Both the position numbers and the translations under genes were made by a program. From sequence record ON871820: a stretch of 64,000 nt of DNA. One strand, written 5' to 3'. The DNA is from Escherichia phage vB_Eco-B1.1. A model generated the notes under the pieces. That model was not told the origin of the DNA, did no database searches, and saw nothing but the letters and a program-made list of their open reading frames with translations. Positions 47,405-51,373 of the stretch are shown piece by piece. Positions within the stretch are counted from its first letter, which is position 1. Each line of letters opens with the position of its first letter.

Positions 47405-48295
47405 ATGTCAGTAGTAATTAATAATGTCAATGCAGTAATTAAATCTTTAGTTAATAAAAAAATGATGAATGAATGGACTGTATTTCGTCGTGGAGAGCCA
47501 GATAAATTTTTTCATAGATTTAACCCAACTTTGGATTTGAATGTTATTGATAAAGATGTTCATGCTGAAATTTTAGATAAATTTAAAGTTGATATTGGGT
47601 TTGGATTAGATAAACATTTACAGCGAACAAACGGGTCTGGAATGAGTTTATCTAATCGCATTATGAAAGCCCTTAATAAAATTGGAGCATTGTCTCGTAT
47701 TAACGCGAGTGAAATCCTTCGCAATTATAATAAAGGATACGACCTTTATGGTCGACTAATGCCAAAATTATCATTCGATCAAATGATTGCGGATTTGTGG
47801 GAAAATCAACGACGATTATTAGCATTAGGCGCTCGATTAGCTAAAGGTCTAGATAAACAAATGATTTTTAAGACCAATAATACAGAAGACCTTAAATGCT
47901 TTAAATTTAGTATTCGTGGAGATGATTATTACATCAGAGCTCGCTCTACTGATTATGTTAATATGGGGCATCATCTCTGTTTAGCTTTTGAAGTTTTAAA
48001 AGAAGCCGGAACATTAGAATATTCATCTGGTGCAAAATGTCCAATTGGTTCAAGTTGTATTTTAATTTATCGCCCGGATGAATCCAGTTCATCCAAATTA
48101 CCTACAAAACCTGTACCAGTTCGTAGTAACGAAAAACATTCTGAACAAATTGATTATTTTAATAAGCAGATTGAAGAGCTGAATATTTCTATTCAGCAAT
48201 ATGATGATGAAATTTTCAGACTATCTGGACTGAGTAGTAAAGCTAAATCTGAGCGTGAAAAGTTAATTAAAATTGTTGATTTACTTAAATCTTAA
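47405..48295 (+). CDS. paralog array member P1 (hypothetical, C-terminal coiled coil)
   Basis: ATG at 47405 after GTGAGGA (track start is a TTG); 296 aa; central ENQRRLLALGARLAKG motif shared with P2-P4. Confidence 0.6.
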   Translation: MSVVINNVNAVIKSLVNKKMMNEWTVFRRGEPDKFFHRFNPTLDLNVIDKDVHAEILDKFKVDIGFGLDKHLQRTNGSGMSLSNRIMKALNKIGALSRINASEILRNYNKGYDLYGRLMPKLSFDQMIADLWENQRRLLALGARLAKGLDKQMIFKTNNTEDLKCFKFSIRGDDYYIRARSTDYVNMGHHLCLAFEVLKEAGTLEYSSGAKCPIGSSCILIYRPDESSSSKLPTKPVPVRSNEKHSEQIDYFNKQIEELNISIQQYDDEIFRLSGLSSKAKSEREKLIKIVDLLKS

Positions 48296-48303
48296 GGAAC
48301 ACT

Positions 48304-49332
48304 ATGAAAACTCGTTCTCAAATTGAAGATATAGTTCGTAATGCCAGCTATACTCGTGATGCTATGACATTTTTGTGTGAAAATAATTTAGACCTTAATA
48401 AAGTTAATTGTTCCATTCACGCCTTTAAACATCTGAACAGCAGTGAATGGGTGCGTAATTTTAATGAAGCAGGGTATATTACACAAATGACTGCTCGTGA
48501 GCAACTCGTTGATTTCTGTAAAACTATTGATTATAAAAATCCTCTATTTGTTCGAGGCATTGGTCAGAGTAAGGTTGATTTATCAGCAGGATTTTTTAAT
48601 CCAAATCATTATCGTCTTGAATGGAGATTTATTGCTCTATTCCGTAAACAATTAAAGCAAATTTTGTCGACTGCTAGTCGATTAAAAGGCTCTGATATTA
48701 ACTTAAAGAACCTGAAATTTGATGGTTATACTCTTCAGATGGAAGTAAGACCATTAAAAGAAAATAATAGAACTGCACGAATTAGCTTTAAACCTAATAC
48801 AAAAAATTCTCTTTCAATTTGTGAATGCCTTAAATCACAGTTGACAGAAGCATTTAAGCATATGGATGTTGTTGCTGCTGTTCAGTCTAAGATTTCACAA
48901 CATTTCGAACGATTTAAATTAGACACAACAACATATGAACTTGATATGATCGTTTCATTTAAATACGATTTTTTGAGAAAGGACGAAGTCACGCAAGAGA
49001 AAAAGCGGGAAGTGCAAGATAACTTAAATTTAAATTTATCCAATTACTCATCAAACGATCCTAAATTTTGGATGTATAGTTCAGGTAATAATGATGCATG
49101 GAAATTCAATAAAGTGAATTTTCTTCCTGTTGAAAATCCGAGTCTTAAACCTGTTGAAAAATGGCATGCTGATGCGATTGAGAAGTCTATCAAGGCAGTA
49201 GATGATGAACTCGTTAAAGCAACTAATGAAGTGTTAGAAGCTGAAAAGATGTTAGAAAAAGCTCAAGAAAAAGTCAAAAATCTCACGAAGCAACGTTCTA
49301 AACTGAACAATGCACTAAATGCACTGAACTAG
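48304..49332 (+). CDS. paralog array member P2
   Basis: 342 aa; RFIALFRKQLKQILSTASRL aligns with P3 RWISNFRLFKKQILKSASKL; coiled-coil C-terminus. Confidence 0.6.
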   Translation: MKTRSQIEDIVRNASYTRDAMTFLCENNLDLNKVNCSIHAFKHLNSSEWVRNFNEAGYITQMTAREQLVDFCKTIDYKNPLFVRGIGQSKVDLSAGFFNPNHYRLEWRFIALFRKQLKQILSTASRLKGSDINLKNLKFDGYTLQMEVRPLKENNRTARISFKPNTKNSLSICECLKSQLTEAFKHMDVVAAVQSKISQHFERFKLDTTTYELDMIVSFKYDFLRKDEVTQEKKREVQDNLNLNLSNYSSNDPKFWMYSSGNNDAWKFNKVNFLPVENPSLKPVEKWHADAIEKSIKAVDDELVKATNEVLEAEKMLEKAQEKVKNLTKQRSKLNNALNALN

Positions 49333-49361
49333 TTTACTTTACCACAAGGATGTGGTATAAT
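49332..49361 (+). promoter_or_regulatory. early promoter
   Basis: GTTTAC at 49332-49337 and TGTGGTATAAT at 49351-49361. Confidence 0.6.
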
Positions 49362-49389
49362 GTTCTTACTTTCTACTGAGGAGATTAAT

Positions 49390-50391
49390 ATGACTCGTAA
49401 CGAATATATCAAATCATTCAATAGTGTTATTGATGATAAAGTTAAACCTATGTCTAGTCAGAATAGCGTTATTTCCATTATCAATCAATGGCTCAATAAT
49501 ATTGATGTAAGCATTGTTTCTTCCAGCAAATTTATTCATGAAGTTCATAAAATTTCTAGTCGCGAAGATAAAGATGATATTAAGGAAACCTTTAAAGGTT
49601 CTCGTCTTCTTTCATATTTAGTTAATCAGGATATTCTTGGTAAATTTGGGAAAGAAATTAAACGAACTAAAGATGTAGTAGGATATAATTGGTTCGGTGA
49701 TGTTAATTCTTATCATCTTAATATTAAAGAAGACCCTGAGAATATTTTTACTCGTCGTTGGATTAGTAATTTCAGACTTTTCAAAAAGCAAATTCTAAAA
49801 TCAGCTTCTAAATTATGCTATGGTGATTATCGCCAAATTCATCCTTGGGCTTCTGATATGATTATCATAAAAGAATATGAACTTGATAAAAATAAAGCAG
49901 CTATTTTTGTGAATTATGGATTTTTTACACCAGAAGCTAATCAAAAGAACATTAATAAATTTTTCTCAATTGCTAGTGATATAACTCGTCAATTAGAGAC
50001 TGCACTACTTTGTATGGAAACAGTAGAAAATATTCATACTTATCCTTTTAAGAATATGTGCGGTTGGGAAGGATACAAAATTGTAGTTAGTCTTCGTGAA
50101 GTGAAATGTGCTTATTCACTAACTGATAAAGAAATTTATCAACAAAAATGCGAAGAAATTGTGAATACCCCTAAAGAAGAAACTACACTTGAGGAACTAA
50201 TGGATAATCTTGATGATTCACCTGAACAGGTAGAAATTCGTCCAGAAGTTATTGCACTAGAAAAAGCTTATAAAGAAGTTCTAGAAATTTCTAATAAAGC
50301 GCAGAAAGAATATGAGAAGGCTAAAAGGATTTGGGAAGAATCTGTTAATCGCCTGGATCGTCTTGAACAAGCTTTACAGTTAATTAAGTAA
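49390..50391 (+). CDS. paralog array member P3
   Basis: ATG at 49390 after GAGGAG; 333 aa; coiled-coil C-terminus. Confidence 0.6.
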   Translation: MTRNEYIKSFNSVIDDKVKPMSSQNSVISIINQWLNNIDVSIVSSSKFIHEVHKISSREDKDDIKETFKGSRLLSYLVNQDILGKFGKEIKRTKDVVGYNWFGDVNSYHLNIKEDPENIFTRRWISNFRLFKKQILKSASKLCYGDYRQIHPWASDMIIIKEYELDKNKAAIFVNYGFFTPEANQKNINKFFSIASDITRQLETALLCMETVENIHTYPFKNMCGWEGYKIVVSLREVKCAYSLTDKEIYQQKCEEIVNTPKEETTLEELMDNLDDSPEQVEIRPEVIALEKAYKEVLEISNKAQKEYEKAKRIWEESVNRLDRLEQALQLIK

Positions 50392-50394
50392 TTT

Positions 50395-50422
50395 AAAGCC
50401 AAGGATGGCTCGGAGTATAAAT
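50395..50422 (+). promoter_or_regulatory. promoter-like element
   Basis: AAGCCAAGGATGG then GAGTATAAAT; weaker match. Confidence 0.35.
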
Positions 50423-50443
50423 CATTAACCAAGTGAGAAGAAC

Positions 50444-51373
50444 ATGAAAACTCGTAAACATTATATTGATTATTTTGATAGTCTTATTACTAAACACCGT
50501 AATTATCAGATCGGGCACAGAACAGTAATCAATAATATTCTTCGTGATTTCCTTCAATATGTTGGCCAGGAAAATCATATTTGTAAAGATACTCAAAACG
50601 CTTATTCTCATTCGTTAGGCAATTTGCTTGAATGGTTTAAACGTTCTCGTATGTTATCTTCTACTGTAGCTCGCGATAACATTGAAAACTTTATGAAGCC
50701 GAGCTTCATTAAATCTGCGACATCTATAACCGATTTGGTTGAATTTACTATTGTTAACGATGTTAAAAAGACCCATTTGGCTGATTGGTTATCTACCATT
50801 CCTGAAACTAAATTTGCTGATAAATTCGCTTGTCAATTCAATGACCAAGTGAATATGCTTTTTAAGCATGCTCGTAAACTATTTACCGCGGGCGATGACC
50901 GTACAAATACAGTTCATGTTAAGGACTGGGTTATTGCTGATGAAGTAACACACAAGCCAGGTGGTTCATCAGTATTAATTAATATCCAGGTTCCTTATTA
51001 TTACTCACGTAATCTCGGCACCATGAACGCTAGAGAAATTAATAAGCACAACAAAACTATTCGTTCGTTGTCTTATAAACTCCGCATGATGTTAAAAATT
51101 ATGGACGTAGTAGAAATGTATGACGAAACCGAAGATAATGGTTCAATGTTATACAGTTCACGCATTCTAATTAAACTGAAGAACCCTAATACGTATAAGC
51201 CAGTTGTAAAAGAACCTAAAGTAGAAAAGGTTGATAACCTGAGCGAAGAACGTGAATATCTCAATGCTCGTTTGATTGAAGTTGAAGCCCAGATTGCCGA
51301 ACACACCAAATTGTTAAAAGCTCTTAATGCAAAAGCAAATGGTTTACGTAATGCTATTGAGGTATTGAAATGA
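50444..51373 (+). CDS. paralog array member P4
   Basis: 309 aa; NMLFKHARKLFTAGD central motif; coiled-coil C-terminus. Confidence 0.6.
   Translation: MKTRKHYIDYFDSLITKHRNYQIGHRTVINNILRDFLQYVGQENHICKDTQNAYSHSLGNLLEWFKRSRMLSSTVARDNIENFMKPSFIKSATSITDLVEFTIVNDVKKTHLADWLSTIPETKFADKFACQFNDQVNMLFKHARKLFTAGDDRTNTVHVKDWVIADEVTHKPGGSSVLINIQVPYYYSRNLGTMNAREINKHNKTIRSLSYKLRMMLKIMDVVEMYDETEDNGSMLYSSRILIKLKNPNTYKPVVKEPKVEKVDNLSEEREYLNARLIEVEAQIAEHTKLLKALNAKANGLRNAIEVLK

Follow-up and report, generated by a model that had tools for sequence, protein, structure and literature searches.

The stretch of DNA studied here, referred to below as the window, comprises 64,000 nucleotides of Escherichia phage vB_Eco-B1.1 (sequence record ON871820) and carries at positions 47405–51373 a tandem array of four genes, the products of which are called P1 to P4. 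By sequence orthology, the array is assigned to the nrdC.6-nrdC.5-nrdC.4-nrdC.3 block of a T4-like phage of the genus Tequatrovirus (Table 1). An earlier note on this DNA had delimited four consecutive same-strand genes, which verification of the open reading frames (ORFs) confirmed from the first start to the last stop. It had also stated that no T4 protein matches them; this proved wrong, as the comparison with T4 and other T-even phages yielded orthologues of all four in T4 and arrays in other genera. Five consecutive genes occupy 46989–51373 on the + strand, and the gene order is that of T4, with the array upstream of nrdC.2, nrdC.1 and nrdC. The 4.6-kb block has 96% DNA identity to many Tequatrovirus genomes, with matches in 659 phage records, 464 of which hold at least 80% of it. 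The first of the five genes, nrdC.7, is a neighbor of the array that stands outside the paralogue family. As the earlier note had it, this gene just upstream encodes two hydrophobic regions (Kyte-Doolittle segments at approximately residues 1–29 and 102–133); it matches phrog_2547, and T4 NrdC.7 is annotated as a predicted membrane protein. It is missing from the arrays of phages JS10, VR26 and SF. P1 to P4 lack any hydrophobic segment and are thus expected to be soluble.

Table 1. Genes and promoter-like sites of the array and its upstream flank (positions in the window; aa, amino acids).
Feature	Position	Strand	Description
nrdC.8 orthologue	46406–46933	+	just upstream of nrdC.7; unrelated to P1–P4
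Middle-type promoter before nrdC.7	46936–46959	+	MotA-box-like GCTTTA 46936–46941, 12-nt spacer, TATAAT 46954–46959
nrdC.7 orthologue	46989–47393	+	134 aa; two hydrophobic regions; 92% identical to T4 NrdC.7
P1, nrdC.6 orthologue (family A)	47405–48295	+	296 aa; 97% identical to T4 NrdC.6 over first 259 aa
P2, nrdC.5 orthologue (family B, Pfam DUF7235)	48304–49332	+	342 aa; 90% identical to T4 NrdC.5 over full length
Early-type promoter before nrdC.4	49332–49361	+	GTTTAC 49332–49337, 18-nt spacer, TATAAT 49356–49361
P3, nrdC.4 orthologue (family C)	49390–50391	+	333 aa; 89% identical to T4 NrdC.4
Weaker promoter-like site before nrdC.3	50392–50421	+	TTTAAA 50392–50397, 18-nt spacer, TATAAA 50416–50421
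P4, nrdC.3 orthologue (second family C copy)	50444–51373	+	309 aa; 61% identical to T4 NrdC.3

The databases divide the four proteins over three families, namely A (NrdC.6; phrog_2257, PF26899), B (NrdC.5; phrog_2351, DUF7235/PF23882) and C (NrdC.4 and NrdC.3; phrog_1435, PF26897). P1 matches phrog_2257 over its full length (E = 8e-152; homologues labelled PF26899), P2 matches PF23882 with its full length covered (394.6 bits, cut-off 30), and P3 and P4 both match phrog_1435 over their full length (E = 5e-165 and 8e-117; homologues labelled PF26897). No match to PF23882 is present in P1, P3 or P4 in a Pfam search. Identity between families stays below 25%. In an all-versus-all comparison, most pairwise BLASTP E-values exceed 0.01, and the sole pair that BLASTP supports is P3–P4 (E = 5e-7; 25% identity over 226 aa). 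A word-index search with P2 alone returned only relatives of at least 77% identity, too shallow for a profile, and profiles were therefore built on positional counterparts from JS10, ABTNLsp5 (Dhakavirus), VR26 (Gaprivervirus) and SF (Mosigvirus). Curated, diverse alignments were compared in HHalign with reversed-profile controls, and the comparison was rerun with the C-terminal helix removed. These alignments replaced large redundant ones which, combined with realignment, had produced an unstable and non-collinear B–C match.

Families B and C are connected at E = 4.9e-9 (96% probability, 226 columns; reversed controls 0.4–0.55), and the connection persists when the C-terminal helix is left out (E = 1.2e-7). 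Families A and C align over 238 collinear columns at E = 1.9e-4 (reversed controls 0.25–0.27), or 1.2e-3 without the helix, with the probability reaching 83.6% once AlphaFold2 secondary structure is added. The direct link between A and B is weak (E = 0.009, or 0.0043 without the helix; reversed control 0.37). Bridging sequences from phages with a single member were found as well. With the hidden Markov model (HMM) of family B, Marfa_315 of Klebsiella phage Marfa reaches 50 bits, and with that of C it reaches 39; for IME523_335 of Enterobacter phage IME523, the scores are 29 bits with the HMM of A and 32 with that of B. In the same search, the best unrelated score among 523 decoy ORF segments is around 8 bits. 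The HMM of family C ranks its own family and Marfa_315 first, followed by all NrdC.5 orthologues (12–17 bits), above every unrelated ORF. The central motif strings WENQRRLLALGARLAKG, FRKQLKQILSTASRLKG, FRLFKKQILKSASKLCYG and FNDQVNMLFKHARKLFTAGD occupy the same columns in both the MAFFT and the HHalign alignments and reduce to ..N..R.L.(I/L)...A(S/A)(R/K)L..G(D), located on the leading helix of a central alpha/beta domain. Families B and C further have an N-terminus M(K)TR..YI in common, and all families end in ..L..A(L/I)..LK, with P1 ending in LLKS. The view of four divergent paralogues sharing a central motif, which had been put forward before, is borne out by the co-alignment of this motif and by the P3–P4 and B–C matches.

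Profile or structure links thus run over most of the length and connect all three families. From these profiles and the predicted structures, NrdC.3 to NrdC.6 are identified as anciently diverged duplicates that make up a single superfamily confined to T4-like phages. Its spread in sequence space is very narrow, with 19 representatives at E ≤ 0.001 among 1.84 billion proteins. NrdC.8, which has a helical-looking tail, was considered as a fifth member and rejected, as its E-values against the three family profiles (0.07–0.26) equal those of reversed controls.

AlphaFold2 models were obtained for P1 (predicted local distance difference test, pLDDT, 76.7) and P3 (pLDDT 79.2) from separate alignments. 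Both predict the same order of elements: around six N-terminal helices, a short beta region, two motif-bearing helices, a beta-hairpin, a long helix, a second beta-hairpin, a disordered linker and a C-terminal helix of approximately 50 residues. In the P1 model, an N-terminal helical domain and a central alpha/beta domain are followed by the linker (227–241) and the C-terminal helix (246–295). In the P3 model, the helical N-domain (1–84) precedes a small beta region, the motif helices (116–142), the beta-hairpin/helix/beta-hairpin unit (158–235), the linker (259–282) and the C-terminal helix (285–332). The motif lies on the same helix in both (P1 H135–147; P3 H132–142). A Foldseek search of BFVD matches the P3 model to NrdC.6 of JS10 (E = 1e-5, 343 columns), and seven neighbors are common to the P1 and P3 models. 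These are uncharacterized proteins of 304–374 aa from T4-like phages of Enterobacter, Klebsiella, Acinetobacter, Erwinia and Yersinia; adjacent accessions in two pairs of them suggest tandem copies there too.

All four proteins had been proposed to end in a coiled coil. A long amphipathic C-terminal helix is indeed predicted, and a coiled coil is favored by the heptad signal for P2 and P4 only. In a crude heptad test with 300 shuffles per protein, the observed score was reached by 0/300 shuffles for P2 (C-terminal 60 aa), 1/300 for P4, 9/300 for P3 and 35/300 for P1. For P3, the top heptad window (185–212) is central, and the C-terminal windows at 287–290 only reach the 0.6 level. Two further observations concern domain content. 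Residues 30–86 of P4 (window 50531–50701) give a sub-threshold match to the N-terminal SAM-like domain of tyrosine recombinases (XerD/integrase; NCBIfam NF001399, E = 0.0016; Pfam PF02899, E = 0.068), far under the curated cut-offs, which may reflect only a similar helical bundle. Moreover, many GenBank records call the neighbors nrdC.1 to nrdC.11, P1–P4 included, ‘thioredoxin’, a label that apparently spread from the gene names; none of P1–P4 has a thioredoxin-like match in Pfam or NCBIfam.

Three related promoters sharing the string CAAGGATGG had also been reported across this region. They hold up by context and conservation, with coordinates that were off by 1–3 bases: perfect copies of the string start at 46945 and 50400, and the copy at 49345 deviates by one mismatch. 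The 9-mer itself shows no enrichment across the window (12 occurrences with at most one mismatch vs 9.8 expected), and a generic sigma-70 scan of the window returns fewer sites than in shuffles; the promoter assignment therefore relies on context, cross-genus conservation and covariation. Each copy is flanked by a -35 or MotA box on one side and a -10 hexamer on the other, an arrangement that recurs before array genes in four genera. CAAGGATGG forms the core of a hairpin, NNCCA-AGGA-YGGNN, within the promoter spacer and overlapping the -10 hexamer. Before nrdC.7, the hairpin is ATACCA-AGGA-TGGTAT (46941–46956; RNA fold -7.4 kcal/mol, z-score -3.1). This site is conserved in T4, SA20RB, JS10, VR26, SF and ABTNLsp5, and the depositors of SA20RB annotated its equivalent there as a T4 middle promoter that overlaps with a terminator. 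The promoter before nrdC.4 overlaps the P2 stop codon, belongs to the three best sigma-70-like sites (10/12 matches) and contains TACCACA-AGGA-TGTGGTA (49340–49357; RNA fold -8.2 kcal/mol), which a consensus scan flags as terminator-like; its SA20RB equivalent was annotated by the depositors as a T4 early promoter. The site before nrdC.3 holds AGCCA-AGGA-TGGCT (50397–50410), which folds weakly (-5.8 kcal/mol, z-score -1.2), and its architecture matches GTTTAC-NN-CCAAGGAYGG-N6-TATAAT as found before family C genes in JS10, VR26, SF and ABTNLsp5. A fourth copy of the AGGA hairpin occurs elsewhere in the window (29394–29411), within a promoter-like site GTGTAC/TATTAT near 29400.

Copies of the hairpin precede array genes in each of the genera Tequatrovirus, Dhakavirus, Gaprivervirus and Mosigvirus, and substitutions in their outer stem compensate one another. 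Across ten distinct copies, 86.7% of the cells pair, compared to 65% in shuffles, of which 0/500 attain that level, and the covariation score is 0.49 vs 0.12, with three pairs changed on both sides; registers that are slid pair at just 20–40%. As RNA, the hairpins are predicted to fold with modest energies (-5.8 to -8.2 kcal/mol). They resemble the PeSL and PmSL promoter-terminator cassettes described from hyperplastic regions of T4-like phages (Arbiol 2010, PMC2839356; Comeau 2014, PMC4122927), which are short conserved cassettes with an early or MotA-type promoter, a stem-loop and a Shine-Dalgarno sequence between accessory genes. Such cassettes were proposed to act as transcription insulators and as recombination linkers between accessory genes (PMC2839356; PMC4122927), and degraded PeSLs were reported in the corresponding part of the PST genome (PMC4122927). 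The T4/PST-type early promoter pattern (TTTACW, N17, TAYWAT) is present as TTTACT-N17-TATAAT at 49333–49361, and the site before nrdC.7 is a MotA-type variant. In a PeSL, however, the stem-loop lies upstream of the -35 box, whereas the hairpins of the window lie within the spacer and overlap the -10 hexamer. On sequence grounds, we thus class these putative sites as PeSL-like and not as PeSLs in the sense of PMC4122927. In the searchable literature, where three listed papers name any of the four genes, we found neither nrdC.3 to nrdC.6 described as one superfamily with a three-part architecture, nor a report that this superfamily recurs at the corresponding locus of the other T4-like genera covered here, nor a covarying hairpin in the array promoters.

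The array has a function in print through one of its members. An evolved T4 clone that lost the region no longer infected Escherichia coli strain ECOR17; deletion of dsr1 in ECOR17 restored infection, and cloned Dsr1 protected MG1655 (Srikant, Guegler and Laub 2022, PMC9391042). Dsr1 is a SIR2 NADase defense, and expression of the early gene nrdC.5 alone from a plasmid restored plating on Dsr1 cells; T4 nrdC.5 is non-essential, and on laboratory hosts the whole region is dispensable (PMC9391042). The accessible parts of that paper mention neither paralogues nor a mechanism. P2 is the orthologue of T4 NrdC.5 at the same position; P1, P3 and P4 have the same layout and helix type and are remote paralogues that differ from it in their low identity and their lack of a PF23882 match. 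Anti-Dsr1 activity is an experimental result for T4 NrdC.5, and P2 would have it by orthology. Other genes nearby counter defenses as well, with published inhibition of Septu by nrdC.1 and of Druantia III by bas37_0203 (both in preprint 10.1101/2025.11.20.689424) and of OLD by gp49.2 (PMC13096335). We initially considered bas37_0203 of phage KarlGJung (Bas37) as one of the four paralogues and rejected this, as the Bas37 record puts it at the nrdC.8 position; it is 99% identical (174/175 aa) to the nrdC.8 product of the window. The label of nrdC.8 as a nucleotide reductase in one paper is judged a slip based on the gene name. Like P1–P4, the genes nrdC.1, bas37_0203 (nrdC.8), 49.2 and pin are non-essential host-range genes of the same accessory region, but their sequences are unrelated to those of P1–P4. 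The interval with nrdC.5 and its neighbors can be regarded as an anti-defense island. The earlier suggestion of anti-defense factors is accordingly sustained for the nrdC.5 orthologue (T4, Dsr1) and for flanking genes, while it extends to P1, P3 and P4 by analogy.

Copy number and alleles of the array vary. Among four genera of Tevenvirinae that keep the array, Dhakavirus, Gaprivervirus and Mosigvirus have three genes in the order A-B-C, and Tequatrovirus has four genes with family C duplicated; Marfa and IME523 have one. Natural rearrangements occur within Tequatrovirus. Salmonella phage Manna carries an in-frame hybrid, NrdC.6(1-262)::NrdC.4(251-333), and has lost nrdC.5; ACG-C40 retains an out-of-frame remnant nrdC.5(1-68)/nrdC.3(238-309); Pinarejo lost most of nrdC.6, of which the last ~47 codons remain; and a metagenomic protein fuses NrdC.5(146-274) to NrdC.3(129-309). 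The natural deletions observed join coding sequences and not promoter cassettes. A 173-aa protein, P0093, on an 803-bp ENA contig combines an unrelated N-terminus of 120 aa with the exact last 53 residues of NrdC.5 of the window. It was rejected as a domain swap and is probably an assembly chimera, given the short contig and an N-terminus that is unmatched in 50,697 phage records. For nrdC.3, three allele types exist: the type of the window (95–99%; ~300 records), a type at ~75–79% (SF, CEV1, G53 and others) and a type at ~60% (T4/T2/RB55). Between the window and T4, the ratio of nonsynonymous to synonymous substitution rates (dN/dS) is 0.16 for nrdC.6, 0.21 for nrdC.5, 0.23 for nrdC.4 and 0.26 for nrdC.3, so that no gene-wide positive selection was found in this comparison. 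Values of dS are 0.22–0.25 for nrdC.6, nrdC.5 and nrdC.4 and 1.16 for nrdC.3, compared to 0.05–0.08 for nrdC.8, nrdC.7 and nrdC. Low dN/dS together with raised dS points to old alleles moved by recombination under purifying selection; the description of the family as diversifying fails if it is meant as positive selection. The G+C content is 0.29–0.33 over nrdC.7 to nrdC.4 (46750–50500) vs 0.35–0.41 in the flanks, which fits an accessory, horizontally exchanged segment. This AT-richness also supports the earlier picture of an accessory region punctuated by promoters, a type of region termed hyperplastic (PMC4122927).

We propose that the array encodes early-made, oligomeric inhibitors of host immune proteins, in which extra copies, alleles and deletions adjust the set of hosts, and estimate the probability of this reading at roughly 55%. 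The MotA-type middle promoter upstream of nrdC.7 and the early-type promoters inside the array would provide expression before replication. Each product would share the common build of an N-terminal helical domain, a central alpha/beta domain with the motif, and a flexible linker with an amphipathic C-terminal helix, and would inhibit a host immune protein stoichiometrically in the cytoplasm, by binding and blocking it. Oligomerization would be mediated by the C-terminal helix, and target choice by the N-terminal and central domains, which are more variable. P1, P3 and P4 would then have anti-defense roles against other targets, and extra copies, allele swapping and occasional deletion would tune which hosts can be infected. 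Direct binding of NrdC.5 to Dsr1, oligomerization through the helix and the anti-defense roles of P1, P3 and P4 are what we infer within this proposal. Since the nrdC.5 paralogue is a published Dsr1 inhibitor, nrdC.3, nrdC.4 and nrdC.6 are good inhibitor candidates. A phage protein without catalytic domains that neutralizes a defense-associated sirtuin has a parallel, according to the accessible parts of the literature, in DSAD1 of Bacillus phage SPbeta (anti-DSR2), which binds the sensor region of DSR2 and for which DSR2-DSAD1 complexes have been solved. Two alignment profiles searched against all PDB chain sequences, a set that should include these complexes, gave no similarity to DSAD1 above noise.

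Several points weigh against this proposal. The link of family A depends on the alignment, with E-values from 1.9e-4 to 0.016 (other pairs 0.008–0.016, in the same register), and the structural comparison covers the models of P1 and P3, matched by element order. Oligomerization is a conjecture, as P1 and P3 show a weak heptad signal. No recognizable enzymatic or binding domain was found in P1–P4 in Pfam, NCBIfam or PDB sequences. The experimental support is limited to the activity of T4 NrdC.5, and P2 has diverged from it by 10%, so that its specificity for a given Dsr1 may differ. Finally, NrdC.6 is 94–99% conserved within the genus, and this conservation and the gene-wide dN/dS values of 0.16–0.26 are unlike a fast arms race.

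The best surviving alternative, which we consider unlikely nonetheless, is that only NrdC.5 (P2) inhibits immunity and that the other members drifted to unrelated pre-replicative roles, such as the modulation of host metabolism, of transcription or of other phages, or are largely redundant passengers. It would explain why nrdC.5 sufficed for the rescue of plating on Dsr1 cells and why NrdC.6 is conserved in Tequatrovirus more like a housekeeping accessory gene, and the low identity between families leaves room for functional change; nrdC.1 and bas37_0203 appear in the main text of the HIDEN-SEQ preprint, where none of nrdC.3, nrdC.4 and nrdC.6 is named. Yet the neighborhood is rich in published anti-defense genes, copy number and alleles vary among close phages as expected of host-range factors, and the shared architecture argues for a common mode of action. 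Alternatively, P1–P4 might form one hetero-oligomeric complex with a single function via their related C-terminal helices, an arrangement that we deem improbable. The same kind of helix and the terminal motif recur in all four, the adjacent genes are probably co-transcribed, and the position-specific order A-B-C is kept across four genera. Against such a complex, plasmid-borne nrdC.5 alone rescued a phage whose deletion removed nrdC.5, viable phages carry one, two or three members, and internal promoters permit independent expression.

Equally doubtful is that the central domain represents a virion-type (tail-terminator-like) fold reused as an early decoy that occupies host sensors without activating them. 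The sensor of Dsr1 is reported to recognize the phage major capsid protein, and other sensors tail terminators and tail tubes (2026 preprint, PMC12803255). More speculatively phrased, and given as little credence, the whole superfamily could be a virion-derived fold turned into oligomeric decoys, each jamming a different sensor of phage structural proteins, with the array mirroring the sensor repertoire of the hosts. Any likeness to tail terminators (lambda gpU, SPP1 gp17-like, T5 p142, Mu, gene transfer agent) would be confined to the fold level; no sequence homology to that family was found in Pfam, NCBIfam or PDB sequences. P1–P4 differ from them in extra N- and C-terminal modules and in early or middle instead of late signals, and nrdC.5 is described as an early gene. 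Last, the idea that the four are unrelated ORFs with a chance or low-complexity (coiled-coil) resemblance is already largely refuted and very improbable: three separate families in Pfam and PHROGs, mostly insignificant BLASTP E-values and the one non-collinear HHalign run speak for it, but the helix-free B–C and A–C matches lie well below reversed controls of 0.25–0.55, the bridging sequences reach 29–50 bits over the noise, independent structure predictions agree in topology and Foldseek cross-matches the families.

NrdC.5 belongs to the few known inhibitors of sirtuin-type abortive-infection defense. If the four paralogues are structurally alike, nrdC.3, nrdC.4 and nrdC.6 become ready counter-defense candidates. 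On the same condition, the three-part layout suits the mapping of specificity by domain swaps, of which the NrdC.6::NrdC.4 protein of Manna is a natural in-frame hybrid, and the nrdC.1–nrdC.8 interval would be an anti-defense island influencing the host range of therapeutic T-even phages. As these genes are long-catalogued T4 ORFs, one of them with a published function, existing knowledge is refined here and no new class is opened.

Some minor observations concern single genes. In the T4 reference NC_000866, nrdC.6 encodes 275 aa and loses similarity past residue 259 (..YFNKQIEEL followed by IFLFNNMMMKFSDYLD). The full C-terminal helix of NrdC.6 is kept in the window, in other genera and in T4 record OL964735 (97.6% over 296 aa); the NC_000866 gene looks frameshifted, be it through mutation in the laboratory or through faulty sequencing. 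The N-terminus M(K)TR..YI of families B and C faintly resembles a capsid-targeting signal. Elsewhere in the window, the ORF at 28448–28909 (+) begins with MKTYAQFLMTEA; we take it to resemble a T-even internal protein with a capsid-targeting sequence. The likeness in families B and C is probably coincidental, as the P3 model shows a well-packed helix at this place and NrdC.5 is active upon expression in the host. Finally, the start codon of nrdC.2 in T4 and several relatives is an ATG that overlaps with the stop codon of nrdC.3 (ATGA). In the window (51370–51686), the T4-type nrdC.2 frame ends after five codons (ATG AAA AGC GTC TAT TAG), and the next long ORF after nrdC.3 starts at 51432 and encodes 84 aa vs 104 aa for T4 nrdC.2, so that nrdC.2 may be truncated N-terminally in this phage.

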